Assembly (NCBI GenBank): GCA_964482725.1
Contig: CAYZYT010000002.1
Coordinates: forward strand, 5,591-69,590
DNA from: an uncultured bacterium
GTDB lineage: Bacteria; Omnitrophota; Omnitrophia; Omnitrophales; Aquincolibacteriaceae
Length of the DNA stretch: 64,000 nucleotides
Direction of reading: 5' to 3'
A program made the translations under genes and the position numbers. The notes below the pieces were generated by a model that ran no database searches, was not told the origin of the DNA, and saw nothing but the letters and a program-made list of their open reading frames with translations. Positions 3,001 to 61,975 of the stretch are shown piece after piece. Within the stretch, counting starts at the first letter, position 1. The number at the start of each line of letters is the position of its first letter.

Positions 3001-4920
3001 GCCACAAGGAAATCCTCCGGCGAATACGCTTTCCGAAACGATGTGGAATGTCAGCGAGCGGATCAGCCGTATTCAAGTGGAACAACATGTGACGGCGACC
3101 TGGGTGGCAGATGCCGCGAAGCTTGCCGACGCGCTTGAAGCTCTGGCTTCGGGCGATATGTTCTACATGTCTTACGGCGGCAAGAACGATAACGTCACTT
3201 ATCAGTGGACGGACCGTGCGAATTCTAATGTCAGTTTTAGCCTCCAGGTCAAGGAATCCTGGCACGAAGCGACTTTCAACCGGAGCGAACGGGTGACGCT
3301 TGAGACCGTGGAGGCAGAGCTCAGTCGTCTGGCCCCATCGGACAGCCGGTACGCGAAGCTTGTTGCGAATCTGGCCGATGGACGGATTTTCTATAAGTCT
3401 CAGGCCGGAACGGATCAACCGGGCTACCAGTGGGCGAGCGAAGCGAGCCGGAACAAGAGCTATGGTCTCTCGCTTGCGGTCGTCAACGGCGGAATCCAGC
3501 TTACGGTTTCCACAAGCGAGCGCATGAGCCTTGCTTTCATAAAAGCGCAGACCCCGCTTATTAAGAATGTGAATGACAAAAAGGATATCGATGATGTCCT
3601 GAACATTTCAGGCGTGGTGGTCAACCGGTCTATTTCGGACGGAGAGTCCTCAACGGACGGCAATCCCGCCAACCCGACGTATACCTTTTCAGATCCCACG
3701 AACGCGGACAGGAATTTTTCAATCGGAGTCAACAGTACGGCCGTCGATGGTCCGGAGGCCACGATCAACATCACAACCCGCCTCAGCCGCCTCCAGGTCG
3801 AGCAACATATAAAAACAGATGCGAATGGCGCGTGGATCCAGGATCCCAAGAAATTAGCGGACGCGGTCGTCGCCCTCGCGGATGGCGATTTATTCTACAT
3901 GTCCCAATCCGGTATGGATGAAAAGACCGTTCAATATCAATGGTCTAGCATGAGCGATTCCGATAAGAGTTACAGCCTGCAAGTTCGGGACGATTGGCAT
4001 CAATCCCTTTTTAGCCGGACCGTCCGGGTCCTGATCTCGGAACTGAATGCCCAGCTTACCGCGCTCATCGCGGCCTATGACGTCCGTCGCTTGGAGATCC
4101 AGAACGATCCGCAGGTTACGGATAAGGCCGGAACCTTGAAATTGCTGGATGATCATTACACGGCTCAAAAAAACCAGTTTGAAGCCGCCATCACGAACGG
4201 GGAAATGGTCTACAAGACTCAGGCCGGAAGCGATGACCCATCGTACCAATGGTCGAACAAGGCGGATCGCAACATCAGCTACAGTCTTTCGATCAATTCG
4301 CATGTGCCGGTGGGGATCAAGCGGAACGATGGAACGTATCCTTCGTATCGCACGGAATTTACAGTCACGGTCTCCGAACGCATCAGCATCACAGTGTTGA
4401 AGGATCAAGACCCCGCAACAGCGGATCCTTACAGTTTGATCATGGACCCGAACCAGTTGGAGCCCGCCAGTGCCGCGATCGCCGAGCAAGGGGTCATGCT
4501 TTATAGGGCCGTAACGGACGGGAAGATCACCGATCCTGTTTATCAATGGACGAGTTCACTCAAGAGCGATGTGAGCTACAGCATTTCCTACGACCATCGT
4601 ATGCCGACCGGGACCGCGGGCGCGGTGATGACGATCGCTAATTTCACACGGGTGGAGAAGGTAAGTCGCGCGACCCTGCTCGGCCTTCTTGATAAGGTCA
4701 AGAATCCCACCGAGCATGCGAACGCCTTGGGAGCGATCGCGGACGGCGAGAGTTTTGCGTTCTCCCAGCGGGGCACCGACAATCCGAACTATTCCTGGTC
4801 TAGCTTTTCGGATCCGCTTGTGAACTATTCCATCACGCTCGATACCCGCGCGGTGCGCACATCCGAAGCGACGTTCAAGAAAACGACCCGCTTGAGTCAG
4901 GAAGAACTCGAGGCCTTGAC
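1..4920 (+). repeat. Protein-level tripartite beta-rich repeat array, about 5 super-units of roughly 810-910 nt (about 270-300 aa), each with three sub-modules. A: FYKSQAGxDDPSYQWSS…NYSLSVNxKVPVG…SYRTEVTFS. B: VYRSLTDGESxxD…PTYQFAD…NPDKSYSxSVKS. C: FYMSYGGxNDNVTYQWTxRAN…SLxVKD…WHEATFNRxxRVS.
   Basis: Recurrent motifs read directly from the translation. Type A units begin near nt 841, 1650, 2560 and 3370. Units are divergent at nucleotide level. Confidence 0.8.
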
Positions 4921-31900: not shown

Positions 31901-34900
31901 GGAACGGGTTCTGATAATAATTTCCAAATCAACGGTCTGACGCTGCAGACCGGATATGCCTCCGACATCTTCAGCTATGCGGTCCATCATTACGATGCGA
32001 TCACGCATGCCATGGCGAGTGACAGCAATTACGAGAGGCATTATGTGCCGCCCGCGACGGTTTCTACGCCGGTCGTGGTGGCCGGATCCTCGGTTGTGAC
32101 CGGAACGGGCGCCGGCTGGTACACAACAAGAGAAGGGGCGGTCCATGCGTTTAACGACAGCACTCAGGGTTCTGGACCGGTGCTTTACAACATGGATTTC
32201 GGGACCGGAGGCAGTTCCTGGAATCTTGCGATAAGCGCGCAAAATTATTCTAACATGCCGGTCTCGGGTTCCACATACCAGATCGCGGTGTCGATATGCC
32301 TGGAAGCCGCCTGCACCCAGGAAAGTCAGTGGACCAATCTTGGTACGCTGGGTATCGATGCAACCCCAGCGGCGGTCACGGGAGACCTCAGTATTGATCG
32401 GGCGATTTCCGCGGGGAGCCACACAGTTCGCCTGCAATGGCTGAACAACATGATGCCCGATTCGACCCACGATAATAATCTTCAGATCAATTCGCTCCAG
32501 CTCTTCCATAAACAAGAGGCGCAAGTCCCGGGGACCCCGCAGGATGCAAGGGTATCGGAAACTTACTACCGCGCGGACGGGGCTATTTCCAAGATCGACG
32601 CCTTTACCTGGGGCACCAACACGATCAAGAATACGACGACCTTCGTTTTTATGGAGTCCACTCAGGAAGGCGACATGCCGCCGGTCCTGCTTTACACGGT
32701 CAACACGAACGGGAGTTATTCGATCTACAACACCGCATTCGAGGCCGGAGTTATTCTCCCGGGAACCTTGACCCCTCTTTCCTGGGGCGGCTCCGATCCT
32801 GCGTCTCCGGCAGTCCTTTCGTCCAAACAATGCGGACCCAGGGTCGTGCAGGAAATGACTCGCGTTGGTGACCAGGTCCAGCGGACGAACTACACGTACC
32901 GTCAGGATGGGACGCTCCAAATGACCACGGCCCGGCAGCTGGATTCCGCCGGTTTGCATATTACTTCAGTGTCATCGTTCGACGCGACGGGCAAACGGAT
33001 CCAGACGGTGGATTCGTACGCCTGGATGTCAGGGCGGAATGGGGCGCCGTACAATCCGGTGAGTGCCCGCGAAACTTATTTTTATCATGACGGTGCCTAC
33101 GCAAGCTATATCGAGCATACCGAACAGCGCGCGGTGAGCGCGAACGGCACGGTGGCGAGCGAGATCGCTTCGAGTACCGATTACGGCAATTCCATAAGCG
33201 GGAGATCTTCCAAGCTCCGGACGACTTATTTTGCCACGAACCGTCAGGATGTTTACACGTACAACGCGGCGGGACAGCTTGCTTCCTCGACCCAATACCG
33301 GACCTCTTCCGGCCAGGCACAATCGGTCAGTTATTACGATCCCGAGACTAACCGTCTGCTTCGCTCCTATTCGATCGCCGGGAACGCAACGGAAGTTTAC
33401 ACCTATCGGGCCGACGGCACCTTGAAAGAATCCCGGTCCTACGAAGGGGATTGCGGTCCGCTCTGGACGCCGGTCGTGGGGCATCTTGATTCGCTCAAGG
33501 TTTACGACCGGTTCGGAAAAATGACGGATTCTTACTCGTATTCCGATTACGCGGCTGATATGCATGAAGTTTATACGTATTGTGTTCAGGCCTCCTGCAC
33601 GGACGATCAGATCGGAAAATTGAAAACCTCCCTGGTTTATCGCGTCGTCGACGGGGTTCTGACCCAGGAAAAGACCTACAATCTCGAGACCGGGGTCCTG
33701 ATGACCTCTGTAGACAAAGTCAACAACCTGACGACGACATTTGAATACAACGGAAATCGTGAGCTGATTCGAAGCAGCGTCTTCACTCTCGAGGGGGGGA
33801 AGAAGTCCACCACCACTTATGATCCGGCCAATTACAGCCGTCAGACCCGCACGGAAAGTTACGCGACGGACGGAACGACGGTGGTCGGTTGGACGGAGAA
33901 TTGGTATGACGCAACCGGAGCTTTAATGAAGTCCGTTTCCCAGGGCGGTTGGACCCGGACGGAAACGACTTTTTCCGGTTCCCGTGGGCATGAGCGCGCC
34001 ACCCTGGCAAATGTTTATACCAGCATTTATAGCTGGGCCGCCGGGCAGGTTTGGGACACGGATTGGGGTGATGCGGGAGGCATGCGCAATGTGGTGGCCG
34101 GGTTTGTCGCAACAGGGTCGCTCATTTATGCGTGCGGCGGCACTGGGGAAGGAAGTGCCTGTGAGCTTCACACGTTCAATTACACGTTCGATTACGGGGC
34201 GGGCGGCGAGAATGGGGTGACCCAGACCGGAACTGAATGGCGTTTCGATTCGAATTCTTCGGACAGTGTTACGACGCGGAACGGCTACGCGATCCGGAAC
34301 GGAACGCTCAACACCTATACCTACAAAACGGTTCAGGATGTCAACGGCCGCACGGTTTCCACAGAATCCCGGAACAGCAGCGGGGTAGTCACGGACAGGA
34401 CCTATGGCTACCAATACGACCAAAATGGCAACGCGCTCCGGTACACCAGCTACAGCCGGAGTACCGATGGGAAAACCCATACGTACACGGTGAACCAAAC
34501 CTATAACGCGGTGGGTCAACTTGTGCAAACCGCCCAGTACGAGGGCAGTAAGCTTGTTTCCATAACGACCTACACGTATCGTGCCAGCGGAGTTTTAGCG
34601 CAATCCGTCAATATTTCCTATGATGACCAAGGACGTCAGGATACGAGGAATACGACGACGTACGATTCCTTGGGACGCGCCGCGAGCACCAACACTTATT
34701 TCTTTGCCGGAGGGGCGACTCAGAACAGCATTGATTCTGCCCGCCGGGCGATCGCCCGGGCCCGGGCTGCGCAGCGTGCGGCTTCCCAGCTAGCGTCCGC
34801 TTCTCAGAACCTCCAAAAAGCTGTCCAACTCCAGAAGGAAGCCCAGAGAAACGCGGCGCAATCCAGAGCACTCCTCGCCCAAGCGAAAGTTCTTATTGCC

Positions 34901-37900
34901 AGGGCTCAAGCCCAGATCGCCTCCGCGATAGCCACGTTGAAACGTCTCGGGGGCAGCTACGCCACTATGGCTAATTTGGTTGAATTGGCGGGGAAAAGCA
35001 TGCTGGCATTTTCGAATGGGGGTACTTATGACATCGAATGCGCCAGCATCCTGGCAGGCCTTGTGTCTCGCTATATGCAGGGTGACAGAAGCGTTGCGCT
35101 TTTGCAGATTTCCGCCGACAGCTATGCGATCGTCGGCGCCGATTCGGTGACCACAAATCCTCTCACCGGAGAGACGGTCATCACCTATTCCGGGTTCTCC
35201 ACGAATGGAAAGAATAATGATGCCCACTGGATGAATATGACGGATACGATGCGAGCCGACGGTCAGATGTCACGCCGTGTGATCTCGAACCAAAGCAATG
35301 CCGAAGACACGATCACCATGGATTATGTCTACAACGCCGCCGGTCAGCTCCTCTATTACAACACACGTGTGGATACTCCGGATACATGGTTCATGTCAGG
35401 TTACCATTCGTCCAGTCGAACCTACGCCGACTCTTCCGCGGGCCAAGCGGCCATGGAGGCTGATTTTGCCGCGGCCGCCGCCACAGCGGGTATTTCGGTC
35501 CACGACTACATTGCGCAACACACCACGGACCGGACTTGGACTATCGATGAAGATCAGGCAGGAATTAATGGCTGGGGCCGCACTACGATTGTGGTGGTCT
35601 GTGTTGTTGTTGGTTTCTTGATCGGCGGTCCTTATGGCGCTATCGCTGGATTGATCGTTGGAATTGTTCTCTGTGTTGCCATCAACAATGCGGATAATTG
35701 GTTTGGAACTTCGGAGCAGAAAATGGCCAGTTACTGCATGGCGGCCGTGTTGGCGGTAGCTTCCTGGTATTGTCCGGCGCTGTGGTTGCTGTGGGCCGCG
35801 GTGTCAGCGGTCTGGACCTATGGCACGACAGGGGACTTGAAAGCGGCCGTAACCGCCTTCGCGATCGCCGTTGTCATGCATTACATTAATCTCGCTATAC
35901 CCGTCGAGGGACTAGGGACTGCTGCGGGAATAGCTGCAAGCACAATTCCTATTGTTCAGGCCATTGTCAGTTTTGTGGTTCAAGTGGCGATTTTGACAGT
36001 TATTAATATGGTGGTTTATGGGACTGCGGATTATCTTACGCAGTCGGGGCGTAACAAGAGAAGTTGGACCGAGTGCATGTCGGACACATCCAAATATGCC
36101 CTTATCATGGCGGTTATTGCGGTTGGAATGAGGTTCCTCGGGAGATGGTGGAGAGGAGAAAGCCCGTCGGCAAGCTTACGCCCTCCAGTAGCACCCAAAC
36201 CACCCCCTTTCAGCATTGTAGGGGCCTCGGCAATATTTTTATCTAATATTATGACGAGCATTGTTATGGGCTCGGAAGGGACGCAAGACACTTTAAAAGG
36301 ATGGGGCCTTGGCGAGGCCGAGGATACTGACAATCCCAATGATATTAATATCGCGCGTCGTGTTTTTTCAGGCGTTTTAAACGGAATGATCAGCGGGTTG
36401 GTTGGGCAGTTTGCGCCGGGTAACAGCATGCTCTCTTTCCAATTCTTGATGAGTGCCGCGATGGGAGGATTGAACGCTCTTTTTAGCGCAAGTATTGCCA
36501 ATGCCTTGATGCCGAGCGTGACTGCGGAAGGGATGTATTCAGAGGCTGTGACAGACCTGATGGGGAAATTCACGAGCGGTGTTTTTGATATGTTCCAAGA
36601 GAGCTTTTTGCAGGGGCGGCCCTTGACCGCGGCTCAAAAGGAACAGGCTTATGATACGGCCAAGGCGAGTGGCGCCTTTGACAAACAGGACGATCTAAAC
36701 GGACTGACGCTCGACCAATGGATAAACGGAAAGGATATCGGAGGTTGGCATGCGCAATTTGCTTGGAATCCGGATAAACAATGCGTCGCCACAACCCTTT
36801 TGCTTGGAGGGCGAGCGATCACCTTGCAGGGGAATCAGCAGCTCAATACTTTTCTGGGAATACTCGGGGCTGATCCGTCAAAAGTCACACCGGTGATGTT
36901 TATTACAGCGCTCGCAAAAGCGCTTTTTAATGCCGACGTAAAAAACCTCGGCTCCAAAAGCACGGCGGAACGGGCCCAAGAGGATTCCGCCAAAGAGTCG
37001 ATTAAAGTCGTGGTGGATGGCGTCACCCTTTCAATCGATGTCCTCCGATCTTCGGAGATGGTAACGCCTGAAGTGGCGGAAAGGGCCCTACGGACTTTTA
37101 TTTCAAAATATGGCAATCTGAAAACCCTATTGACGTCGGGCAATACGAACGCCCTGGGAGATCTTTTGGGAGCGATGCAGACGTCTATGAAGTCCGGGGA
37201 ACTTCGGGGCATCCTTTCCGTAACATTCGAAAACGTCAATCTTGGCAAGTTGGGGCTCGCGAGTTCCTTGACCGTCACGGGCGATTCGGTTTCCGCGACG
37301 ATCGAGTCCGCAGGGTTGGCCTGGACGATCACCGGCAAAGACTTCGCGGATATGCTTTCGGTCGGCGATCTTCTAAAATCTGCGTTGGATAAATCCGGAT
37401 TGGGGGCACTCCTGCTTGCCGGGGAAAGGGATTTTGGCAAGTTGACGGATGCCTTGATCTCGTTTGGCGATCTCCTTCAGCAGGGGCTTCTGGACGGACA
37501 AAGCATTAAGGCGACTTTTATCATGAAGTACACGGCAGAAAACGGAAAAGTGCTCGACATCACCGTCACATTCACGTGGACCAAAGATGCGGTGGCCTAC
37601 AACGCCACTATCAAATTGGCGGACGGTTCTTCCGTCACCATCGAGGCGACGGTCCGCAACACCAAAGAAGCGATCCACGATATCAAGACCGTCGCCAACC
37701 TTGCCGCTCAATACGATTCGCTTTATTTTACCCAAGCCAATATCGGAAAAGTGATCGAGTTTATGACGAGGGTATTCGACTTGCTGGGTCTGGGGGAGGG
37801 CGGTCTTTATGCGACTCAGATGAAGCTCACATTCAAGGACATCGAAGGGAATCTTTTTTCATTCACCTTGACCAAAACCAAAGGCGGAACGGCCGCAAAC

Positions 37901-40900
37901 ACCAACGTGCTTTTTGAGGTTCAGCTCGTCAATGGCATCAAGCTGAAAGGTCAGGGGACGGGGATCGAGGCGACGGCTAACGGGGTTTTTGCGCTGGCGT
38001 CCATTGTCAAGGCTCCCAAATATGCCACGCTGAACACCATGATCGCGGACAATCCCCAAGCGTGGAGTTTGCTTACGGAATGTATCACGGAGATCATCGG
38101 CGCTGTCCGGAGCGGCAAGATCACGCTGATCGATTTCTCGCTCGAATTGAAGTGGGGAACGTTTGTTTTTGATGTGGCGAAGCAGACCGTTCAATATATG
38201 AATGTCCTGGCCCAGACGCAGGACAAGACGCGCTTTGCGCTGTCAGGCAAATTTGGATTCGATAAGGTGAGTGACGGGCTCAATCAAACGCAGCAATTAA
38301 GGGGGTTGGCCGCGGGTTCCGCGACCTTGGGAGATTTTATCGGGGCCGCCTACAAGCAATTGACGGTGACGGCTCAAAAACTGGGCTCGCTTGATGAGGT
38401 GCAGACGGTGTCCCAGCAGGTGGCGATGGGAGAACTGGGGATCACGGCTTTTGAAAAGAGCGGGGCGGCGATCGGAGAATTTTTCCTTTCCGCGATCAAT
38501 GTCAATGGCCAGATTTTCAACGGCTTGCGAGCCGTGATCTCGTTCGCGGGCAAGGATGGCACGACTCTGAAATGGTCGACCCCGACTTTTATTTCCGAGA
38601 GAAAGGGTGACGGAAGCGCTGCAGGGACCGCGATGTATCAGAAAATTTCCGGGGTGGTTGAAACCCTCCGGACGCGGGCGGCGGGTATTTCGCTGGATCC
38701 GATTGCGGCAGGAGGCGAATTGCGCGGATTTCTCGCGGAGCTGCAGAAAATCTATACGGCCCCCGGAGCGATCATGGCCGGTCTTTCGATCCTGCAGGGT
38801 TCGCTGATGCGCATGGAGTTCCTGGTGGGACCCAAACAGATGGCTTTAGGCGGGCTTGTTTTTGACGGGGTCAATTTCCGTTTTAGCGGAACATTGAACC
38901 TGGATCCCAAAGGGGTGAACCGTCTGGAAGTGTCGGGCAAAGCTGGTTCTCTGGAGTCGGTGATCGGTAATTTCGCGAATATGGACACGACCCTCCGATG
39001 GATCTCTAAGTACACCGATGTGGTGAACAAACTTGCGGTGGGAGGATCCAAGCTGACGGGGGTGGACGGGTTGAGATTCCTGGCCGACATTGAGGCGGAG
39101 TTGACCAAGCAAGGGATCCAAAACACTTTGCAGGGCACGGCGATCATGGGCCTGTTCCAGCAGGTGATCTTTGGGGGTTCCCCGGCGGCTGAGTTTTTGA
39201 CCATCAATTCGAAATTGAAGGATGGGAGTATAGTCCAGACCTTCAGTCTGAACGGTAATGCCATTCTAATGGACCCCGAACATAATCGGATTATGGTGAA
39301 TGGAATTACCACGTCGATGACACGGGACAGTCTTAAAACGAGCTCGGGTCAACAGAGCGGGAAAGTCTCCCTGATAAGGACCGAGCAGGGGGCGCTCTAT
39401 CTTTCGACGGATCTTGGGAGCAGCGGTAACAGTGCGCAGTACGAGGCCAGCGCGGCGCTGGCGTTGGCGCAATTTTATGCGGAAACAGGGCTTGCGCTTT
39501 CGGGGTTTCAATTCTCAGGAACGATCGGCGGGGTGCTTCAGGCCGGACGGCGTACTTACACCGAAATCGTTAATTTTCAACTGGCCGGGGGAGTGTTCAC
39601 GCGGGACGCCAAATCCCCGGTCGTGGTGAATTATACGTATACCAATGCGTACCGAAGCTTCACGGTCTCTACGGCCTTTGAGGCGATGGGGAAAGCGGAC
39701 GAGTACACGCAAAATAGAGCCTCGGCGCTTCTGGATGCTGCCGGAGGGGCTGCCACGCCTGCAGAATTTTCGGCGGCGCTTCTGCCGGGAGGCGGCTTAC
39801 AGGGATTCTTCGGGGCTTCCGCGATGAATGCTATTTTGACAGGCGGTGCGTTTACGACTGGAGAGAAGAGCTGGAGTTTTTCGCTCATTGCCGGAACACT
39901 GGATCTAAAAACAGGTATGGGTATTTATTCGGGTGTCACGCGGGATGGAAATAAATTTTTAATGGGAGTGCCCGAGTGGCAGAAAGCCGGCGGGTTCGGG
40001 ACATTGGACAAGGCTTCCGGGACATTCAGGGATACGCTCGGCAAAGAACTTCCCGGATTCCGCGTCAATCGCATGACTCCCGACCAGATCCCCGTCGATT
40101 CCAAAACAAGTCTGCCAGTAGGGGTGACCTACCCTCTGCAGATCAAGGATAACGCGACTCTCGGCCTCGCTACACGAACTGCGCTCGACGGATTCTATCG
40201 CAGCGAATACGGGTTTTCATTCAGTCTCCTTGGTACCAACGGCGCCATCATTCTTCTCGACTCAAAATTCAATGCGTTGTGGGTCACCCGGGAAAATGAT
40301 CTTTCGAAAATCAATGACCGGGGGCTGACCGGAGTCGGGGTGAATCTCGGCAAAGTTGCTGTGAATGAGAATGGGACTTGGTATGCCGACACGGTGAAGG
40401 AAAAGTATGGGAATTCTCAAGTCGTGTCCGGGACCCTCCGAACTAATGAGGGACGTACAATTTCGATCAACTCCGCAGCACAGGTCTCGGGTTATGTTTT
40501 TGGCGGAAATCTTTCCAATTTGAGCATTGTTTCTCAAACGGCCGCCGCCGATTTGGCGCAGGCGTCCGGTCTGGTTTATCAACGCGGGATGACCGTCTTT
40601 TTCAGCGGGGGTGCCGCTGTGGGATGGGGCGACCTCCGGTTCGATGGAGGCAGGCCGAATGTCCAGAATGCGGTGATCGACGGAAGAGTTTACATCTATA
40701 GCAGTGCGGCGAATGCGTGCGTGGGTGGCGATTCGCGGAAGGTGGTCAACACTTGGAGCGCGGACCAGCAAGGAAACATCCCCGTATCCATGGAAGGAAA
40801 TAAGGTCGCGGATTATGCAAAGCGCGTGACGGGATATGATTTCAAGGACTCGGGATATGCCGGGTTGACGTTGGAAGAGCAAAAGACAGGGGGCGATTTT

Positions 40901-43900
40901 ATTGCCCGCTTCAGCTTGGGTACAAATCTATTACTTCCTGGCTCGGATGCTCTTTTTGCCGGCGGAGCATCAGGAACCTTTGTCGGTTCTGGCTCTGTGA
41001 ACTGGCAGGATAAAACAGTGAGGATCCAGGATGTAAAAAGTGTTTCCTTGAATCTCCGATGGGCGCTGACCTCGAACGGACTCTATCAGAGAACGAACCT
41101 TGCGACGGGCGAATCGGACAGAATGCTCCAGGGCGATGGAGCGACGGAGTGTAAGAAAATCGTCGACTCCACTGGCGTTGCAAAATATGCAAATCAGGGC
41201 GAGATCCGCTCCGGGGCCACGGTTGTTTACGAAGGAACGAACGTTGACGGAAAAACAGTTTTTGTAGGATACGACGCGCTGAATCGGTTCGTGCTCTCCG
41301 GCACGGTGATCGGTGGCAGCGTCAGCATTCAAAATGCCATCAATTTTTCCAAAGACAGGTCCTGGACCGTTTTGCCTAACGGCACTTTGCTCACCACCCA
41401 GATCTCAACGGGGATCGTACTGTCTGCCACGAATGCAAAGGGAACCGCTTTGCCGATGACGCGAGTAACAACCACACGGAACGGTCTTGCGGAGGCCGGA
41501 ATCACGGGCGTTGCTCTTGATCAGAACGGCAAGAAGATCCCTGTCAATTTGACAGTTCCGGTGGGGAGTTGGGTTCTCAAGGACGGTACGACGACGCTGT
41601 TCCTCAACGGAGAACGGACCAGTATTTTTGGGATCATGAACGGTGTCCAGATCCAGCAGTGGATCACGGATCAATATGTTCTGCAGGGTGATGGAAGCGG
41701 ACTTGTGATTGCGGATCGTTTCTCTGGAAAGATCCTCGGTGGATGGGACATCCGCAAGGGGGATACCTTTGGACGGGCTTTAGAATGGAAAGCCGGGGAA
41801 GTCATGAACGCTGCGGCGAGGCAGGGGGCAGAACGTCAGGTGCAGGAAGAGGTCCAAACAGCCCTGGAGACTCCGGCGGAAGTGGCTCCTGTATCCGTGA
41901 TGGAACAGTTGGTCTTGGAGATCGTGGCACAATCGCTTGAGGGAACAGGTCTGACCTTAGGCGCCAACGGTGCTCTCGAAACCATCCCAGAGGGTTTTGT
42001 GGCGATCGATCAAACCCAGATCGTCAAGGCTCAGCCGGTCACCGCGGTGAATTATAAAAATCAGGCCGGAGTATCGCAGACTGCGAACTTGATGACCCCG
42101 TCCAAGGCGCTGGTAAGCGTCGGGGCGACGGAAGCGACGACTCTCCGGATCTTCATGGACGGTGAAAGCAAGATCGTAGGAACGACCGTGGGCGATGTGC
42201 GTTACGCCAGCTCGATCGTCTTTTTCAAAACTGTCGATGCGAATGGGAATGTGAACGGATTTGTTCAGAATCAAGGGACCGGCTGGATTGCGGTGATGAA
42301 TGCTTCGGGTATCCTTGTGGGCGGCTTGGATATCCGCGATCCGTACGCGCCGCAGGCGATGGTCTGGGAAACTAGCGCCATGAACCCGCTGGGGCAACGA
42401 CAATACACCATCACAGATAAGGGCGAAGCGAAAACACTGACGCTTGACCGGTCGACGCAGGCACTCGTCGGGCGAAATGCTGATAATCCGGAGGCGACTC
42501 TCCGCGTCTACGCGAACAGAAATGCAATGACCGGCTCGTATGAAATCGCCGGAGCGACGCTGGGCGGTCTCTCCGACGCAGCTCACATTATTTTCTTCCG
42601 CGCCGGTATTTATTTGCTTTCCGGAGATTCTGTGGCCGGGATTGCTTCCGATATTTTGACTGTCCAAAATACCTTAACGCAGGAGTTTCTGGGGTATTTG
42701 GGTGCAGACGGAGCTTTTGTCTCCGGTGCGGCGGCCGCGCTTTCAACTCCTGAAGCTCGTGCTGTGAATTCCCAAGCGGGTATCGGAAAAGGTTCGGTTG
42801 CTTACGATCATGTTTATCGGGTCAAGGGCGCGGACGAGAAATATCACGGTTATTTCTATCAAGGCATCAATCTTGTAGGAAAAACGGTAGCAAACAACCT
42901 CAAAGACGTCGGCCAGCTTGGAAGCAATAATGCGAAGCAGGGGCTTCTGACCGCATTCTATAAAGTGGGCGAAACTCTTTACACTCATAGCGCGAGCGCG
43001 CTCCAGAACGGCGATTACGGGGTTTATCTTGCGACCAATAAGGCGGGAAAACCTATCGGAATGATTGGCGTCAGCGGTGCGTTCTATGCGATAGAAACGT
43101 TGTCGTCTCCGACCGAGATCAATTTAAATACCCGCACCGGAAGCGTTGCGTCTCGGCAGGGTGAATTTCGTTTGCGGGCGGATGCCGGGGAAGGTGGAGA
43201 ATTTTATTACACCTACCTCGATCGGAATCAGGCAGAAATCGTCACGATGCGCATGAATGACAAGGCCGCCCTGTCGAGCATGACCCGGGAGGGTTTGATC
43301 GTGGCTGACGTTTTGAAACCGATCGAAGGCATGAGCTATATGGCGTATCAAATCGCCGGATTTACTTATGTCTTGAGTCCTAAATTGGCTGAGACTCGGG
43401 CTCTCGCGATCTTCGATCGCAGCGGCCGATTGACCTCTTATCTCAATGAGAATGGAACGCTGGGAAGTCAGTATCAGAAGGATCCTGCGGCCGCAGGCGA
43501 ATTGATGACGGTTGCCAGGATCAACGGTTTTGACCACGATCGCAGTTTTGGGGTGGTGCGCGCGGATGGCCAGATATTCCGCATCTATGTGAAGGGGAAC
43601 GACGCGGTACTGTTGGCCACGACGTGGGAGAAGCCCGACAGCGGGCGGTCGGTGGATCAAATGATGAGCGGCGCTCTTTCGGTCGCGAATCTCGATCAGG
43701 CAAGCACCAATATCCTGTTCGTTCAAACGGCGGATTATTTCTTCCGAGGCATTTCGCAGTCTTCCGCACGGAGTATTTTCCTGAGGACCGACCTGAGAAC
43801 CGGGGAGACAAACGGGATTCAGGGGGTGAATGGATTTGTGGCATTCCCCGTGACCCATGTAGCTTTGCTGGATCCTTTGGGCGATGCCCAAAAGCCTTTT

Positions 43901-46900
43901 AAATTTTCGACATTTATGCAGGTTCAGGCCCGGGATCGGGCTGGGAAAGTTGTGGAAGCGGGTTTGTACTTGAACAACCAAAGGGAGGTCGTCGGATTGA
44001 TCTCTGCGGCTCAAGGAACCATGCTGGCCGCAAATATGCTGATGTCGACCCATGAGTTGATCCAGACCGTATTTTTTAAGATCGGCGGGATCACTTATTC
44101 CCCCTGGTTGCCTGGTATTTTGCAGACGAGGGACGCTTCCGGACAATTGGGCGCTTACGATATCAAGACCCGGGAATATGCCGTCGTGGAAGCTTATGAT
44201 CCCCAAAAACACGGAACTGCTTCGTTTACGCATCCTGGCGTTAAAAATCCGATCACGCTCAAAGCGGACACGGTCCTTTTCTTTAAAGGGAAAACGCTGG
44301 CTGAAAACCGGCTGATCTTCCTGAGTAACGGTAATTTTGTTGCTTTCCAGGTGGGGACGGTCCTCCAGACGCTTTATGACGGAAATTATCGCGTTCAACT
44401 GGAATCGGGTTCCTGGTACTCCATTGCGGAAAAACAAGGAACCGAATATGTTCCCATCGCGGGTTTGACCGCCGGGAAGGTCATGGTACCACTCTATGAA
44501 AAATCAACGACCGAGGCGGAAGCCTTGAGAGCGAGCCATGAACTTGGCGCCGGCCAATCGCTCAATCCAACGGCAAGAGACGGCTCGTCATTAGCTTCGG
44601 TCAAGAGTTACGGTCTCGCGCGTGCGTCTAAGGTTTTTGCCGACGCAACCGGGCGGACTGTAATCTTTTGCTCGAAAAATGAGTCCGGACGTTATGAAAC
44701 GATCGCTGTTTTTAACAATACTGAAAAACAGAGAAGCATTGGCTTTCTCAACACCGGCACCTACATCATCCAGCCGGTCCGGGGCGGTTTGTATGAATAT
44801 TACAGGGTGACCCCGGAGGGTTCGAGAGGGGCGTTGCTTGGCTATAGCCTGATCCAGGATCCGACCGTAACCGGGAGAATGGTCACGGATCCAAGGACGG
44901 TTGCCGGAATGGCGCGTGAGGCTTCCTTCACGACCACGGGGACCAAACGTACCTTGGACCTCAGAGGGGCAACCGCAGTACTTGTATTTGGAGATGCGAA
45001 GCCCGGAAAGAATCAAAACGAGAAAATATGCACTGTCTTTTTGGGGCCTGACGAAAGAGGCGTAACCGGTGTCATGGCGGTCTTTGATGGCCGCATGCCC
45101 GAGCTTACTAACCCGAATCGCGCGGGGGTCCTTGCCGCCCAGCTTCAATATGCTCATATTGGAAGCACCTTTTATACAAAGGCTTTAACTTCGACGGATG
45201 GTGTAGTGCTTTCAACCTACAATGCCGCCACCGGACGCACGGAATATTTTGGCGTGACGAGCGCAGGCATGGGCGTCGAGGCGACCCAGCTCAATGCGCC
45301 TGAAAACAGGTCTTTCTCGGATTTCCTGAACACGGAACTGGGACGGGTGTTTGCGGGCGAGGGGGTTCACACCAGCGCAACTGCGATGCTGATCCGTTTC
45401 GGGAAGACGGAAGCGGTATTGGATCCTGCCCGGACGGATAACGAACTGGTTTACTCTAATGTGTCTCGTGGGGAAAATTATCGAGTCGTGACCTATGTTT
45501 CTGACCGGGGATATGCGTATGCCGAAACCTACGAAAAGAAACCGATCCGGTGGGATGCTCCGAGTGGCGCCAGGAATGTAAACACGAACGTCCCGGACAT
45601 GCGATCGCCGAGTGTCCTGATCGATACACTGATCAGTGCCATCACGAGGGATCCTTCAGGAAAGATCGTGCAGGCGTGGATCTCGCAAACGCCGGGACAG
45701 TATTACGGGGCTGAACAGATCCGCGAATCGACACGGTACTCCGGAATTTCCTTCATTGAATATGCGAAGGACCAATGGGTCAGCCTGAGTCCGTGGGAAA
45801 CCGGTGTGAAGATCTATTCGGAAGGCACCAAGATCCACGAAGTATACAGCGGCAAATTCGTAGCGTTCGGGGAGGTTCAGATCAGGGAGATGACCGTCAC
45901 GTACGATCGCTTAAATCCCAATCGTCCTGAGGCCTACAAATTTGACATTGCGTGGAGTGTTGCTCATGACGTGGAATTCACTGTGAATGACTTGATGAAG
46001 ACCGGAATGGCTGCAACGATCAACTGCCAGCAATTCGGCGGGCCCAAAACGGAATTCGTTACGTTCTCGATCAATCGTGACGGAATGATCACAGGGCTTT
46101 CGCAAATGAACGACGAGGAGTTTTCAGATGCAGCCCTCACTTATGACTCGACCGGTGTTTTGAGCACGATCGACACTCATTCTTCGTTCAACCGCCTGGA
46201 AACAAAGTCTTTGGATTACTTCGACACCTACGGACAATTCGTCCGAAGCGAGGAGTATTTCACGAACAATATCACATGGACGGAACTTTCTTTAGGCCAG
46301 CAAGTGACCGCCATCGGTACCGGTGTTGCAGCCGTAGCTGCCGCAATTGCGGTAACGGCATTTACAGGGGGAACGGGCGTTGGGGTTTTTGGATTGGTAG
46401 GAGGATTAGGGTGGAGTGCGACAGCGGCTATTGCGGCTGGCGGTGTCACTGCTCTCGGGATCGGCGCGACGATGTATGTAAGCGGTCGCGTTGGCGGTGT
46501 TTATGGCTGGCAAGTGGGTGGACAAGCCGGAATAGCGGTGGGTGCTGTGATGGTCCTGATCGCTTCCGGCGGTATTGGCGGCACAGGCTGGGTCGCGTGG
46601 GCCGGCATGGGTGGCATGGCGTGTTATGTGACTCATTTTGGTTTGACTGAATTCATGGGCGTTGATAGGGACAATTTAGCCATGAAAGCTCTTGATCTTG
46701 CCGGCATGGTGGGCATCTGGACCGGGGTTGGCGCTGCTTTGTGGAAAGGCATGGTCGGGAAGGTCGGGGCAACGGCCATCGGTCGTTATCTGACGCGTAA
46801 TTTCAGCATAGAAGCCGGGGAACGTCTGGCGGTTGCCGAAGGCCGGAATGTCGCGGCAATGGGAGCTAATAAATTTACAAGATCGTTTAATTTGACAAGA

Positions 46901-49900
46901 CTGGCATTCGAAAAGAATTTCAAACCCGAAGTCCTCAACTTAAGTTTGCGTTTGTGGGACGCGACGCAATTAGTTTCAATAAAAGCAGCCTTGGCAAGTA
47001 TTCCGGTGGTTACGATGGATACCATTCTGGGAGGTGCGGTGATTGCGGTCATCGCGGCTTTCTCGATCCAGTTCCTTGCCGGTAACAATCTGACCATGGC
47101 GGAAAAAGGAGCGCTTGTCGGCGTTGCGACTGCTTTAGGGCTCGCACTCAGCTATGCCATTGCCCGAAATGTTAGTGCCTATGCTTTGGGACGCTGGACA
47201 ATGACCATGCAAAAAGCGCTTACGAAAGAAAGAAGTCTTGTTCCTTTCCGGACAATGAGAGATGCGGTTAAATCTTTCGCTCCAAGCGCAGTATTTAAAG
47301 GTTCTTCCTATGCGGGTTTTCAGGAGGTTTCGAATTGGGCGATTGGCGCTGGTATCGCAACGTTTGCCGTAGGCCAAATGATCGATTCGCAAGAGCTCAA
47401 GTTTGTTGGACTGGTCATCGGCGCCGGAGCTGCACTGCCGCGGATGTTCCTCTTTTTCTTTGGAAACCCAATTGCCCTTATGAACAATAAACCCTGGACA
47501 TTCAGCCAGGTCGCGGCCGGACTCGGCATGCTGTCGGGTTGGTCTGGTGTGATTGTCGCGTACGGGGGATGGAAGACTGGATCTGAAGATTATAAATCCT
47601 TGGGCAAGGCCCTGATCATGGCCGGATTTGCCATGCGGGCACTGGCCGGGGCGATCGGTGGGGCTACGGTTTTTGGACTTAAAGGTGAATTAGATCTCGG
47701 CCTGATGGCAGGATCCAAACTAAATGCGACATTCCTGCTCAAAGTTCCCGGGGAAACGGTACTCGACAGGCTTTGGGCTCAAGGAGTTAAAAGCATCTTA
47801 TTCTTCCGGTTCTTCGGTATCGCACAAGCGGCTTTTGGGATCGATCATATGGTGGATGCGATCGCGTCTTCTCTGGGGTACCAGACCCCGCTTCTCGCGG
47901 GCGATAAAAATGATCCTGATGGGTTGGCAAAAGCCGGCTATTGGAAGCACCTCGGCCAGGTTCTTGCCAAAGAGCTTGGCATTGGAAGAAACGTTTTTCA
48001 GCAGGGCGGCCTTCTGGATGTGGATCGTCTGGCCCATGACTTTATTCTCGGGTTCCTGATGCATCATGTCGGGATCACGTACCGTGGAGGCACGGGCTTT
48101 CTTAAGACGTTGGGAGAGAAACAAGGCGTGGTTAAATTTGTGTGGAGTTCCTTGAATCCCGCATCCTTTGAGAGAAGGTTGGCGGCAGGACAATCTCAGT
48201 CGCTGGGTATGGCGGCATTCCATTTTGCGGACAACATGCTTATGTTCAATCTCGTAGTCGCGCCGCTCCAGGCTTGGGCAACCCTTTATGGAAAAGAAGC
48301 CGCAGCAGAAAGCTCTTACCGCCAGCAGATCCTCCAACTCGGAGAGATGCTTGGGGCTTATTTTATGATGCCGCTCTCCGCGGTTTTTGCCCTGACCGGA
48401 AATACAGCAGATGAAAAAAAGTTCGTGGGCGATCTCAACTCCTTTGGCATATTCCTTGTCCCTCAGCACGGAGGCCGGTTCGCGTTGGATTACTTTATGC
48501 AGGAATTACGCGGTGAATCCACCAAGCAAATGGGCGAAAGAATCGGCGGCGAAAGATTGAGTGAAGAGAAAAAAGCCAGCACGGAATGGCAAAGAGACCT
48601 CGGAACAAGCATCATGGCGGAACGCTTGAATGATCTGGCACGAACAAATCCTGAATACGCAAAACGCATTATGGTAGATCTGCAACAGGTCGGAACTTTG
48701 CAGAGCCTCGCTGATCGTGCCAATGAAGCGCCTCTTGGAGTCAACGAAGCGGTCCGTCTGCTCGCTTCCGGTGATCTTGGCAAGAGCGTGGATCTTATGT
48801 TCAATTCCAAAGCGTTAGGGATCTTCGTCCAGGATCTTGGCGCAGAGCTTTATCGATCCGTTGTCTCCCGGGAGGTTGAGGGCGGTTTGAAAGACACGTC
48901 GGCGGATCAGGCTACTAAAAATATGAGAGTCGCGATCCTGAACGGGGCCAAGGACGGAAGAAAGATCTCGGAAGTTTGGAAAGACCCCGATGTCGGGGGA
49001 GAACTGGCGATGCCCGAAGCCTGGAGATCAGCGGCCGATCTTGTGATCACTGCAAGTCTTCGACCGATCGTGGCCTCCCGGTTATGGGAATTGCAATCAA
49101 AAATGGCTGAAGGCCTATTCAAAGAACTTGGGATATTCAAAACGAACGCTCTGAGCGGTCGTACGGATGCGACCTTTACCTATGACGGTTACAGACTTTC
49201 GAATGAAGGCGTCAAAGCCCTGTCCATCGCGGCGGGCGGGAATAAGGATTATGTCGGTTATGCCAGAGACTACATCCAGCGCAGTACGTTGGCGGGGATG
49301 AAGGATCGAGCCCTTGCCGAAGCCTATGAGAAGGGTGGTTTTGATATCCTTACGTCCGATCAAAAAATGCTATTCCTTACCGAGTACTCCACGGCGCTCA
49401 AGGATCTCTTCAGACCTCTCACGGAAAGTGAGCTGGGCCCCGGATTCCTAAAAGCGATCCTGGGCGTTTATGTAACCGAAGTCCTCACAAGGGCTTCGGA
49501 TATTATGACCGAAGGATTACGAGACGGGAGCCTGAAAATCGAGGATGGCTTGATTCGCACCAAAGACGGCGCGGAAATAGACCTGTTTAAGAATATCAAA
49601 CTCCGGGAGGACCGACTTGCTACGACCGGAAAAGACGGAACGTCCGAAGAGCAAAGACTGATCCGTGCGATGCTCGCCGGCAATGAATTGCAGAACAGGA
49701 TGATCACCGAATTCACGAAAAAGATCTCGGACCAATACCAGGCGGTTTTGATGGCGAAAGATGATGTCTCTCTGGCTGCTGCCTTGACAGCGCTTTTCGG
49801 ATCCGCGGAAAATGTGACCGAGATCTGGGGCATGCTCAATGGGCTTCGGGCCCGCTTTGAGGCGCTGGGCCTCGGGGAGATCTTCAGGAGCGAGGCGGGA

Positions 49901-52900
49901 GATTTCCTGGCATCCCAGATGTTGGGTCAGATCAACGAAGGCAAGAATGTTTTTAGTCCGAAAGCTTTGTATGCCAAGACCGGGGAGGGCGATGCAGCCA
50001 AAGTCACCGGGATCCTTGCGAACTACAAACGGCTTGCAGAGAATGTCGACAATGCCAAGAACAGGGATCTTTATAAACTAACGGAAGACGTTGATCCCAT
50101 GGTGAAGCTATTGATCGATGGAGCGTTTGATCAGATCGGCCCCATGATCATCGCGGAACTGAATCGGATCAGATCAGGAGGCATGCTTAGTTTTAAAGAG
50201 AGAGAATCTTTTAACGGTATCTCGGAAGGAATTGTTAACGAAAATGGCGAAGTGATACAGACGAACAACATTTTCATGGTTTGGAAGAACAGCCTCAAGA
50301 CGGGGTTGGCAGATCGGCCGGCGGTTCAACTGCTGGAGGCTGTCGTGGCGAAACTCCGGGCGGATGGCAAAACTGAAAGAGCGGCGGAGCTTGAGGCGAA
50401 AAGAGAGGAATACGAGTCCAAGGATCAGACCGCTCAAAGGACCGACCTAAGGGCTTCTCTTATTACTGAACTGGCCAAGCTTTATTTTGGAAAATTCCTT
50501 GATTTTGCCAAGACGATGGTCGCGAACGGCCCGAATGGCGGGCGTTTATTTGCCGAGACTTTTGCGGACAAATCCCTCCGTTTCGACCTGATGGATCCTC
50601 TGAGCGCTCTTTCCGCCGGGGATTCGGTCCGGTCGAATCTCGAGCTTTTGGCTTTCGCGAACGCAATGTGGGAAGCGAAGGGGTGGTGCGTCACAATCGA
50701 ACAGATCGACAGTTTCATGAAAGCCAAGACCGGCCATATCAACGCCGCGATGGGCGCCGGAAAAACGCTGGTCGGCGTTGCCCTGATCTCTTCGGAAAAT
50801 ATCGGGATCGTCCTTGTCCCGAATTCTGCGCTGGCGCGGAATATGATGAACGGTCAAGACTTTCTCTCAGTCATGTCAGGCGGCACCAAGAGCTTTGTGG
50901 ATGGGATCGCTCTTATCGAGCAGATCCGGAGCACGGATATGGCGGTTTCAAAAGCGGCGCTTGAAACATTCCTTGGGTATCTGGAAGCCAAGGACAAAAC
51001 GGCGATTCTTGTGACAGACCGGGACTCTTTTGGCCATTTGAAGAATTATCTTCATACCAATTCTCATCGCTATGGAGAGCTGCGCAAGGAATACAATTCC
51101 GTCTATGAGCGGTTTGAAAGAGCCTATGAAGCGAATAAGAAGCTCATGGATGAGATCCATCAGTGCGCCAACCCGATGTATTTTATCATTGGCGGCGATC
51201 CCATCAAGGCCGGCGAATCAATGCCGAATTATCGGCTGTTAAAGACCATTGCGGATGTGCTGGGAGGTGTGGGAGAGGACGGGAGACCCGATGTAACACA
51301 ATCCCTGATGCGATACGAAGGGGATAAGGATTACGATCCGGCAAGGCACATCCTTGTTCTTGAAGAAAATTCAGCGAACACCCGAATGCTCCGGGAGCCC
51401 GGATGGAAGAACCGTGCGGTTGTGCTTGTTCGAAACAAGGAATTTGTGGCCTGGTCCAATTATGATGCGATCAAGAAGGTTCTGAGGAGTGACCCACGGA
51501 TCATGGCGGAATGGGATGCTGTCGCCGGAAAAGCGACACCGCTTTATTCCTCGGAACTTGCTTCGATCTTGAGAGCGTTGGTGATCCGGTCTTCCGATTT
51601 CAGCGCCATTCTCACAATCCTTGGCAATCAACTCGGCGTTGACGGCGGACAATACCGGCCGCGCAGTTTTGAAGGCAAGCTCGAGACAAACCAGATCATC
51701 GAGGATACGGCCTGGTTGATCGGCGTACGGAGTCTCGCAAACAGTGCGCTGCATGTAAAGGAAATCGGCGGAAAGAGATTGACGGATGAACAGCGGACGG
51801 AGTTAAAAGAAGTTGTTCGAAGTCTCTATCTCCGGAACCGGAGAGCCGACGAGATCCGGAACGGCGAATCCCGAGATGCCGAGTATCACCTCGAAGTGAC
51901 TAAAACCGTCACGGCAGTCAGTATGTATGACCTTTTTGCCGGAGAACGCAGTTTTGGTATGTCCGGGACCTTGCTGGAGGTCCAGATCCCGATCGAAGTC
52001 CTGAGCGGCCGCAAGACAGGCGTAGTGACAACGGAGGGGGAAACGCTTTCCTATCTGACCGAAATGTACGCCTCCTCGAAACACGGCATGAATCAGCGGC
52101 ATAGCTTTAAGGTTTATGACCAGTTCGGAGGAACGTCGCGTGTCGATCTTGCGCTGGCCCATTATTCCGGAGAGCGAGCGCCGGGAATGGAAAACCTTGC
52201 GATTAAATTCACCAAAGGCGCTTCCACGCTTGTTGGATATGGCAATGACGGTTCCATGATGACCGATTACAAAAAAATTATGGAGCGAGGGTTTGTTGAC
52301 GGCTTAACTCATTCTGCCATTCGCGATTTGTTGCAGGTGAAGAATAGCTATGATGCTAAAAAGAGTGCATTGGAACGAGCTTCTCCGGCGGAAAGAACCG
52401 CGTTGGAGGCAGAAGTTGATGCGCTGAAAAAAACTTTAGATTTAAAATCAGCGGAAGTTAAAAAGCTAAATATCGTTCTTAAGATCGACGGCCGGTTGGG
52501 AGATGAAGGCATCAACAGTGTTGACGGTGTGAAGAAAATCTTCAATGCTTTAAATGAGCTCAATGCCAAGGTTCTTTTGTTGACCAATTCGCGCGGTTTG
52601 ACGGGCGTGGACTACCAGGCCACAGCCAACTTCCTTCTTTTTGCGGGAAGCTTCACAAATGCCCAGCTTATGCAGGCGATCTGGCGTATCGGTCGTACGC
52701 GAATGGATGGAAACCGGTGGGAAAGTCATGCCGCGGTTTTTGTGGATGAGGCACGTTCCGAGGCCCTGCTCCAGAGTCTGAGGGTTCAGGATCCTGCCAA
52801 GGGAACTTATGCAAGTATTGATGCTTGGACGGATTATTTCCGGACCCGGTGGGCGGATGCGCGGACCCGGACCGGGCTTATCTTTGAAGGCTCGGACGGC

Positions 52901-60750: not shown

Positions 60751-60838
60751 GTCGTTTTTTTTCTCTCTGCTTCTCGGTCCCTTGTCGTGCGCCCGCTCAC
60801 CTGTACACATTAAATCAATTCCAAATAATCTACGTCGG

Positions 60839-60868
60839 GGGGTTCTCGAAAGTAGGTTTTAGAACCCC
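60839..60868. other. Perfect 8-bp stem hairpin (GGGGTTCT-N14-AGAACCCC) inside a 624-bp ORF-free convergent spacer (60751-61374).
   Basis: ggggttctcgaaagtaggttttagaacccc. No U-tract immediately 3' on either strand, so it is not a classic intrinsic terminator. Confidence 0.35.
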
Positions 60869-61821: not shown

Positions 61822-61899
61822 CAGATATATTCTCCTTTGTGAATTATCGAGAATCGCACTGTCTTTACGTTTTGTAAAATCTCTTTATGCCCTAGCTGA

Positions 61900-61966: not shown

Positions 61967-61975
61967 GTATTTTAA

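Follow-up and report, generated by a model that had tools for sequence, protein, structure and literature searches.

The 64,000-nucleotide stretch of DNA analysed here (the window; contig CAYZYT010000002.1, positions 5,591 to 69,590, from an uncultured Omnitrophota bacterium) is occupied almost entirely by a single giant open reading frame (ORF), which would encode the C-terminal 20,000+ residues of a giant surface protein anchored in the cytoplasmic membrane. Two clusters of hydrophobic segments are embedded in this chain, far from a terminus. The joint reading that we consider probable is that of a giant membrane-anchored Omnitrophota surface protein in which both clusters are transmembrane (TM) bundles, the second (cluster 2) acting as a boundary and the first (cluster 1) as a staple. 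Along the chain, the predicted order is outside, cluster 1 staple, outside, cluster 2 boundary, and a cytoplasmic tail that bears an ATPase.

The giant ORF lies in frame 2 of the + strand and stays free of stop codons between base 2 and its own stop at 60121, which corresponds to at least 20,039 amino acids (aa). The ORF listing gives the gene as 161..60121 (19,986 aa) with GTG as the first start; no in-frame stop occurs upstream of this GTG, and the left edge of the ORF is open, which places the N-terminus and any signal peptide beyond the window. Residues are numbered from base 161. The features of the membrane regions are as follows.

2..60121, + strand: giant ORF, at least 20,039 aa, a stop-free frame covering nearly the whole window
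35582..36526 (aa 11808-12122), + strand: TM cluster 1, with uncharged runs and peaks of up to 2.45 in 19-residue Kyte-Doolittle windows (KD19)
aa 11808-11844, 11855-11891, 11895-11915, 11917-11956, 12017-12037 and 12068-12122: hydrophobic runs of cluster 1
36029..36208 (aa 11957-12016), + strand: K/R-rich loop of cluster 1
36527..46285 (aa 12123-15375, about 3,250 aa), + strand: inter-cluster segment, similar in composition to the N-terminal part
46286..46654 (aa 15376-15498), + strand: Gly/Ala-rich hydrophobic part of cluster 2, with uncharged runs of 67 and 53 aa and 26% Gly
46655..47449 (aa 15499-15763), + strand: middle part of cluster 2, TM pairs between K/R-rich loops (aa 15533-15599 and 15670-15722)
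47450..48469 (aa 15764-16103, about 340 aa), + strand: conserved core domain of cluster 2, from a profile hidden Markov model (HMM) of the core alignment

Extent of the hydrophobic clusters

With a KD19 threshold of >=1.6, the giant protein has 96 hydrophobic windows, of which 93 belong to aa 11790-12122 or aa 15370-16083, regions that make up about 5% of the chain. Shuffles of the whole protein also give around 50 such windows, scattered along the sequence, so that the total count is no signal by itself; the non-random signal is the clustering of hydrophobic windows together with their depletion elsewhere. The three longest uncharged runs of the protein (67, 55 and 53 residues) all lie within the two clusters. 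Both measures confirm the two internal clusters proposed in the preliminary description, which had the positions right and the intervals too narrow: cluster 1 continues to nt 36526 (aa 12122) and cluster 2 to about nt 48409 (aa 16083), and position 47850, formerly given as the end of cluster 2, coincides with the conserved GIDH motif, midway through the conserved part.

The uncharged runs of cluster 1 measure 37, 37, 21, 40, 25 and 55 residues, bearing out the long, probably hairpin-forming stretches described earlier, which are of hairpin length (37-40 aa). Beyond its 67- and 53-residue runs, cluster 2 contains about 10 further, shorter hydrophobic segments up to aa 16083. Uncharged hydrophobic segments of at least 18 residues combined with a charge bias of the loops, as in generic alpha-helical polytopic membrane domains, were found in this way. 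Helices were counted with a TopPred-like scan, and roughly 22-25 candidate TM helices were obtained over the 20,039 aa. Both clusters are almost certainly alpha-helical membrane segments, and the chain almost certainly meets the membrane at two separate places; this part of the earlier proposal agrees with KD19, the uncharged runs and the relatives described below, and it is from the sequence that we infer helix counts and sidedness. An AlphaFold2 model of cluster 2 built from nine sequences was all-helical rather than the buried beta structure considered as an alternative, at low confidence (predicted local distance difference test, pLDDT, 44). Foldseek returned no PDB match for this model, a result that is meaningless at such a pLDDT. 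No similarity of cluster 1 to cluster 2, or of either to the rest of the protein, was detected, and the idea that the two clusters are duplicates of each other was rejected.

A conserved membrane module shared with relatives

Word-indexed homology searches with either cluster gave no matches. With aa 15340-16540 as query, HMMER was run exhaustively against 1.84 billion cluster representatives and identified 8 proteins (E 7e-27 to 6e-9), six of them of 5,200-6,200 aa and two short fragments. Among the five looked up, three were named Omnitrophota/Omnitrophica, and one, a 749-aa fragment (P0007), was labelled Deltaproteobacteria. The four relatives whose contigs were checked all run into a contig end or a scaffold gap, and their apparent size of 5,000-6,000 aa is an assembly artefact. 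At locus L005 (CAYWRU010000052.1), for instance, a run of N at about nt 3000, a scaffold gap, divides the giant ORF into pieces of 1,013 aa and 6,046 aa. Scans with the core alignment added 11 loci (8 from genomes, 3 from metagenomes) at each of which an open ORF takes up all or most of the DNA retrieved; 7 of the 8 genome loci are named Omnitrophota or Ca. Taenariivivens. A search with the region after cluster 2 gave one relative, a partial "helicase C-terminal domain-containing protein" of an Omnitrophota metagenome-assembled genome.

In blastp, the relatives are collinear with the window protein at about 25-35% identity, from about aa 15520/15750 to 16200 (the latter half of cluster 2), then over aa 16770-19235, and again at the extreme C-terminus. 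The shared C-terminal module thus comprises cluster 2, then, about 1,000 aa further on, an SF2/DEAD-like ATPase, and finally a conserved tail, and the order from cluster 2 to the ATPase was observed in 10 related sequences (8 non-redundant). TM clusters are kept at the position homologous to cluster 2. Because the relatives are open giant ORFs, mostly named Omnitrophota, and one has the same downstream gene order, the window protein appears from its sequence to be a divergent member of a small Omnitrophota giant-gene family. Further strong TM clusters were observed in L008/P0002 (aa ~3750-4014) and L010 (ORF aa ~5912-6243), downstream of the position that the ATPase takes in other members; neither has an ATPase match. 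Since the window lacks such extra downstream clusters, the number of membrane modules appears to vary within the family.

The core HMM matches the window and 15 non-redundant relatives with E-values of 1e-38 to 1e-158, over the whole core except in two contig-truncated fragments with partial coverage. The core is characterized by the motifs FFGNP, SWxGxG, AGFxxR, FRxFPxxQAxxGIDHxxD, RxxHDxxLGxxxHxxGxxY, FxDNMxMFN and LVPQ. In the 16 sequences, R15956, H15959, D15960, D16024 and N16025 are invariant together with several Gly, Phe, Trp and Tyr residues, and H15896, H15968, N16030, P16101 and Q16102 are among the near-invariant positions. Searches of Pfam, NCBIfam and the PDB (by sequence and by profile) gave no match to the core. 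Given that the invariant Arg, His, Asp and Asn would lie mostly near the outer face in the topology model below, the core probably does something beyond anchoring, such as catalysis or the handling of ions or substrates. The order R-x-F-P ... G-I-D-H ... R-x-x-H-D ... D-N superficially recalls PAP2 phosphatases; the spacing differs and Pfam PAP2 matches 0 of 9 members, leaving this as a lead only. Core positions 20-100 weakly match upstream hairpins in several relatives, and these matches hint that the membrane module may have grown by duplication of TM hairpins.

The Gly-rich part of cluster 2 had been described as full of GxxxG-like Gly-zipper motifs typical of pore-forming helices. Its 26% Gly is real, and the zipper register is at the level expected from composition: aa 15376-15498 contain 8 GxxxG motifs (7.8+-2.1 in composition-preserving shuffles) and 7 zipper triplets (6.5+-2.3), Gly-Gly spacing has no i+4 peak, and the Pfam Gly-zipper families do not match cluster 2 even at E<=10. 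The seemingly pore-typical pattern is a by-product of composition. Relatives keep the Gly/Ala/Thr-rich hydrophobic composition of this part and not its sequence; most have 11-23% Gly there, the exception being L012, with 8% Gly and no hydrophobicity. The transmembrane glycine zipper is a concept that reportedly goes back to Kim et al. in 2005. Cluster 2 resembles such zippers in having Gly-rich hydrophobic segments with several GxxxG motifs and differs from them in the shuffle-level counts, the lack of a Pfam match and the unconserved sequence. The suggestion that cluster 2 forms a conduit found no positive evidence: nothing resembling SecY, YidC or another channel was detected, and the data speak neither for nor against a pore.

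Topology of the chain

In windows of 300 aa, charged residues account for a fraction of 0.188+-0.041 in the part before cluster 1, 0.181+-0.016 in the inter-cluster segment and 0.268+-0.025 in the part that follows cluster 2. The values between the clusters are indistinct from those of the N-terminal part (p=0.41) and differ from those of the C-terminal part (p=8.5e-5) without overlap. A step from low to high charge at cluster 2 was observed in 12 of 12 relatives, and in the window there is none at cluster 1. Pieces of the inter-cluster segment are collinear with regions that lie upstream of cluster 2 in relatives (P0003/P0004; L012 aa 1940-2326). Because the compositional step is found at cluster 2 and not at cluster 1, these data suggest that the chain crosses from the outside to the cytoplasm at cluster 2 and that cluster 1 is a staple with an even number of spans.

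The charges of the loops agree with this arrangement. The flank before cluster 2 is acidic and is followed by K/R-rich loops: those at aa 15533-15599 and 15670-15722 contain 11 and 8 K+R as opposed to 5 and 3 D+E, and the family average for loop 15669-15750 is 9.8 K/R and 3.8 D/E. Family-averaged loops alternate between basic and acidic, and a path through cluster 2 from N-out to C-in, with an odd number of about 15 predicted spans, fits on account of this alternation. Such a path would bring the GIDH...D and R..HD motifs close to the outer face and leave the ATPase tail on the inner side. The flanks of cluster 1 are acidic on both sides and its internal loop (aa 11957-12016) is K/R-rich; for this reason an even number of spans would fit cluster 1 if its 37-40-residue runs are hairpins. 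Composition and the positive-inside rule together favour even spans in cluster 1 and odd spans in cluster 2.

In the resulting model, cluster 2 (aa 15376-16083, ~15 putative spans) would be the conserved, family-defining membrane module at which the chain enters the cytoplasm from outside. The portion outside would be repeat-rich, with few charged residues and abundant Ser, Thr, Asn and Gly. The 3,250-aa inter-cluster segment would also lie outside, as cluster 1 would not switch sides. Cluster 1 would consist of lineage-specific helical hairpins with an even number of spans, a staple that attaches the extracellular chain to the membrane a second time, with no change of side. The predicted cytoplasmic tail, about 3,900 aa long and charge-rich, would carry the SF2/DEAD-like ATPase, tethered to the membrane by cluster 2.

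Cluster 1 itself has no detectable homologue, either in the word-indexed homology search of databases or among the fetched loci, and nothing significant was found in Pfam or NCBIfam (YidC, E 0.76, is insignificant). Upstream clusters do occur in two relatives. In L014 (Ga0247727_10001613), a cluster of extreme hydrophobicity lies about 2,200 aa ahead of cluster 2 and is preceded by YD-like repeats; at ORF aa 819-1151, this upstream cluster includes a 129-aa stretch with KD19 of up to 3.49 and, after it, further helices. At L005, a homologue of the upstream cluster of L014 (E 1.6e-16) stands at the start of the ORF that precedes P0008. Homology of cluster 1 of the window to these two could not be detected, though they are homologous to each other. 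Because the L014 and L005 clusters are present yet unlike cluster 1, a second upstream anchor appears to recur as an architecture and not as a conserved sequence.

Several points weigh against the boundary-and-staple reading. The compositional step could reflect the type of domain and not the cellular compartment, and a loop predicted to lie outside (aa 15805-15816) carries 3 Lys. The N-terminus, with any signal peptide, lies outside the window. Segment counts from the TopPred-like scan are ambiguous (7-9 in cluster 1, 14-16 in cluster 2), and, according to West-Roberts et al. 2023 (bioRxiv 10.1101/2023.11.21.568195), TM predictions on such giants disagree between tools and are unreliable. Both AlphaFold2 models, of cluster 2 and of the ATPase region, are of low confidence (pLDDT 44 and 48), and the fold searches with them returned nothing. 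The case for cluster 1 as a conserved feature draws on the analogous, non-homologous upstream clusters of L014 and L005, and L010 and L012 have no strong TM cluster within about 3,000 aa upstream, a distance just short of the inter-cluster spacing of the window.

Opposite parity, with an odd cluster 1 and an even cluster 2, would make the inter-cluster segment and the tail cytoplasmic and leave only the part before cluster 1 outside. The 37-40-aa stretches, if they are single tilted helices, would change parity in this direction, and the first 880 aa after cluster 1 are somewhat richer in Leu, Glu, Lys, Arg, Ala and Met than the N-terminal part (37.8% vs 26-33%). A second preprint (bioRxiv 10.64898/2026.06.07.730766) classes many giants as "TM-only" with a cytoplasmic bulk. 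We regard this arrangement as unlikely: the inter-cluster composition is that of the N-terminal part and does not overlap with that of the C-terminal part, YD-like repeats stand ahead of both clusters alike, the acidic flank followed by K/R-rich loops at cluster 2 fits an outside-to-inside passage, and the step at cluster 2 recurs in all 12 relatives.

ATPase and C-terminal tail

The region downstream of cluster 2 contains the following features.

50708..52720, + strand: SF2/DEAD-like ATPase, about 770 aa after cluster 2, with SF2 motifs and weak ResIII/DEAD matches
50753-50767 (GAGKT), 51149-51160 (DEIH), 51956-51970 (GMSGT), 52583-52618 (TNSRGLTGVDYQ) and 52685-52699 (RIGRT), + strand: ATPase motifs
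52721..60118, + strand: charged Leu/Glu/Lys-rich C-terminal tail, with a charged fraction of 0.27 and collinear in blastp

The ATPase motifs span aa 16865-17513, and the region is kept in 10 related sequences, or 8 after the removal of near-identical copies. GAGKT, DEIH, GMSGT, TNxxGxxGxD and QxxxRxGR, which represent the elements expected of SF2 (Walker A, DExH, motif III, and motif V/VI of a Helicase_C-like second lobe), are all present and invariant in the ATPase alignment. The relative P0008 matches DEAD with 30.1 bits (Pfam cutoff 26); relatives also match ResIII, and Helicase_C reaches 20.8-22 bits in them, below its cutoff of 23.5. A 7-sequence profile of the ATPase matched only XPB in the PDB (E 0.01), and neither the single sequence nor a two-sequence profile matched anything there. 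The AlphaFold2 model of the region from 7 sequences (pLDDT 48) gave no Foldseek match in the PDB, which is meaningless at this confidence.

Equivalent ATPase domains of Omnitrophota giants are called "divergent SecA DEAD" in the literature (bioRxiv 10.1101/2023.11.21.568195, in the sections covered). In our searches, SecA_DEAD (PF07517) had no Pfam match at E<=0.1 in the window or 6 relatives, hhalign against E. coli SecA aligned the P-loop only (E 0.057), and the score of the ATPase HMM against SecA was no better than that of 2,000 shuffles. Membership of SecA is thus unsupported by all three, and a likeness of motifs by eye remains. From its sequence, the ATPase is best described as SF2/DEAD-like, with its SecA-likeness unproven. 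SecA together with SecYEG offers a comparison in having a DEAD-type motor, an insertion between motifs II and III, the motifs seen by eye and an adjoining polytopic membrane module. The present system differs in showing nothing significant past the P-loop, in having no scaffold or wing domains, and in having a membrane partner that is fused in cis and unrelated to SecY.

The ATPase bears on the possibility that cluster 2 is the channel of a built-in export machine, driven by a SecA-like or SF2 ATPase and exporting either the N-terminal 15,000+ residues of the same protein or accessory proteins. Cluster 2 and the ATPase always occur together in the same order, and the invariant Arg, His, Asp and Asn of the core exceed the needs of a passive anchor. 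By eye, DEIHQCANPMYFIIGG can be set beside DEVDSILIDEARTPLIISG, TAVSMYDLF...GMSGT beside ASITFQNYF...GMTGTA of SecA, and TNSRGLTGVD beside TNMAGRGTD; West-Roberts et al. propose that SecA-like domains export the giant protein itself (bioRxiv 10.1101/2023.11.21.568195). Set against this, no similarity to SecY, YidC, Tat or a channel family was found (Pfam, NCBIfam, PDB profile, and Foldseek on a low-confidence model), SecA membership lacks statistical support while the best PDB profile match is XPB, and the Gly-zipper argument fails. A C-terminal machine is also synthesised last, and hence cannot act co-translationally on its own N-terminus. An export machine of this kind appears rather improbable. 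We give similarly little credence to a related proposal, in which cluster 2 would be an Omnitrophota-specific machine of about 15 helices with an invariant Arg/His/Asp/Asn site and a cis-fused, divergent SecA-like/SF2 motor, serving as a dedicated translocase or membrane enzyme. If it were true, secretion or processing would be built into the giant adhesin as a self-contained system that deploys or services the adhesin and has no relation to Sec, Tat or YidC.

The charged tail is collinear in blastp to the final residue, aa 19986, in P0002, P0004 and P0006, and has no Pfam match. Two HExxH motifs, HEELH and HENEH (window 57233-57247 and 59468-59482), and the sequence GADNRAGIA (58208-58234) were observed in it, with no Pfam family. 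These could be cryptic metallopeptidase sites relevant to self-processing.

Cleavage of the giant chain as a polyprotein, with each cluster as the membrane domain of a separate mature protein, would accord with these HExxH motifs, with C39/S8-mediated processing as suggested for such giants in the part of the literature covered (bioRxiv 10.1101/2023.11.21.568195), and with the ORF interrupted at a gap in the scaffold of one relative, though that interruption is an assembly artefact. Pfam detects no protease domain in the window and there is no RHS-type DPxGL motif before the clusters; we hold such cleavage to be very unlikely, and it would in any case be compatible with the clusters as TM anchors. 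That the clusters form the hydrophobic interior of soluble helical domains, or are Gly/Ala-rich linkers of low complexity, is scarcely credible: the Gly-rich part has only moderate hydropathy (mean Kyte-Doolittle value ~1.0-1.3 over long runs) and shuffles of an Ala/Val-rich protein also give many windows >=1.6, but charge-free runs of 37-67 residues with KD19 up to 2.5 are confined to the clusters, the loop charges alternate, and hydrophobic clusters occur at the same place in all relatives.

Comparison with known giant proteins

How a cell synthesises, exports and retains a protein exceeding 20,000 residues is an unsolved question. The window protein is close to the Omnitrophota giants of West-Roberts et al. 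2023 (bioRxiv 10.1101/2023.11.21.568195; sections covered by term search), for which a single ORF of >10,000 aa is the mark. It shares with them a single ORF of >20,000 aa, scant Pfam coverage and relatives that are nearly all named Omnitrophota, apart from the 749-aa fragment labelled Deltaproteobacteria. A long TM-free N-terminal part with F5/8 type C (discoidin) domains and RHS-like repeats, and a TM anchor near the C-terminal quarter followed by a helicase or "SecA-related" ATPase, are further likenesses. It differs in that no dockerin, TSP3, HEAT, C39 or S8 domain was detected in the 20,039 aa visible, in an ATPase that is generic SF2/DEAD and not SecA_DEAD, and in a downstream YqeY and Bat/MoxR cluster in place of PilZ. 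The neighbourhood described in that preprint, in the sections covered, has a locus resembling a type II secretion system upstream, and PilZ and sugar-import genes downstream; in the present case the upstream side falls beyond the left edge of the window.

The same source names two types of giants, "Dockerin-type" and "Archaeovorin", the latter marked by HEAT repeats, many TM regions along the chain and metabolic enzyme domains. Assignment to the Dockerin-type was rejected, the Pfam content of the 20,039 aa being F5_F8_type_C with weak CBM60 and ResIII, and the N-terminus lying beyond the window. Archaeovorin was rejected as well, with no HEAT or enzyme match in Pfam and TM segments confined to the two clusters. 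As the visible part contains no dockerin/TSP3 or HEAT domains, the protein belongs to the general Omnitrophota kind and, in that part, to neither named subtype.

A survey of complete genomes (bioRxiv 10.64898/2026.06.07.730766) reports TM helices or a signal peptide in 94% of 916 long Omnitrophota proteins; those of >=10,000 aa average 22 TM helices (median 16), which take up about 2% of residues. With its roughly 22-25 candidate helices, the window protein is typical in this respect. That survey provides DeepTMHMM classes and counts, and homology of TM modules is not described in the sections covered. Teneurins and other RHS/YD-repeat proteins with TM segments are similar in combining YD-like repeats beside TM helices with a very large surface protein; the present protein differs in that its repeats are recognised by eye only, without an RHS core or autoprotease motif, and in that its TM segments follow the repeats.

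Internal TM regions in Omnitrophota giants are already published, and the observation of two such clusters, as stated in the preliminary description, adds little. Neither the core of about 340 aa nor a second upstream TM cluster was found in a term search of West-Roberts et al. 2023 (bioRxiv 10.1101/2023.11.21.568195). The core may be worth keeping as a new detail, conserved and unannotated and with invariant polar residues; together with the SF2 ATPase about 1,000 aa downstream, it pins down a testable unit. The order outside, staple, outside, boundary, cytoplasm supplies a concrete topology hypothesis, and the misleading cue of a Gly-zipper pore is removed.

Other features of the giant gene and its surroundings

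A Pfam search of all 20,039 aa identified two F5/8 type C domains and weak matches to CBM60 and ResIII, F5/8 type C being the sole confident domain. The F5/8 type C (discoidin) or NedA-like galactose-binding domains are located at window ~26096-26450 (Pfam E 4.9e-18) and in a second stretch nearby. The repeats ahead of cluster 1 were recognised by eye.

32558..34720, + strand: YD/RHS-like repeat region before cluster 1, with repeated Y-x-Y-(D/N)-x-x-G-(Q/R)-L-like units

Neither Pfam nor NCBIfam gave an RHS_repeat or YD_repeat match in the window or in this region. No DPxGL autoprotease motif precedes cluster 1 or cluster 2, and the idea of RHS-type autocleavage ahead of the clusters was dropped.

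The genes downstream of the giant ORF (window 60169-63949) encode a 193-aa TM protein without a Pfam match, YqeY, on the minus strand (61375-61821), and a VWA+TPR BatB-like protein of 657 aa, whose long tail is of low complexity and enriched in Lys, Glu, Gln and Asp; PilZ was not found among them. YqeY and the VWA/TPR Bat-like gene stand in the same order on the Omnitrophota contig JBDRCT010000010.1, where BatA, DUF58 and MoxR come next. Along the giant gene, GC skew is positive nearly throughout and turns negative directly after the stop, with the maximum of the cumulative skew near 60 kb (window 1-60000). A tandem array with a period of 549 nt (183 aa) was observed at window 12880-17340, in about 8-9 copies; since neighbouring copies are up to 95% identical in DNA, their sequences suggest a recent expansion of the array within the giant gene.

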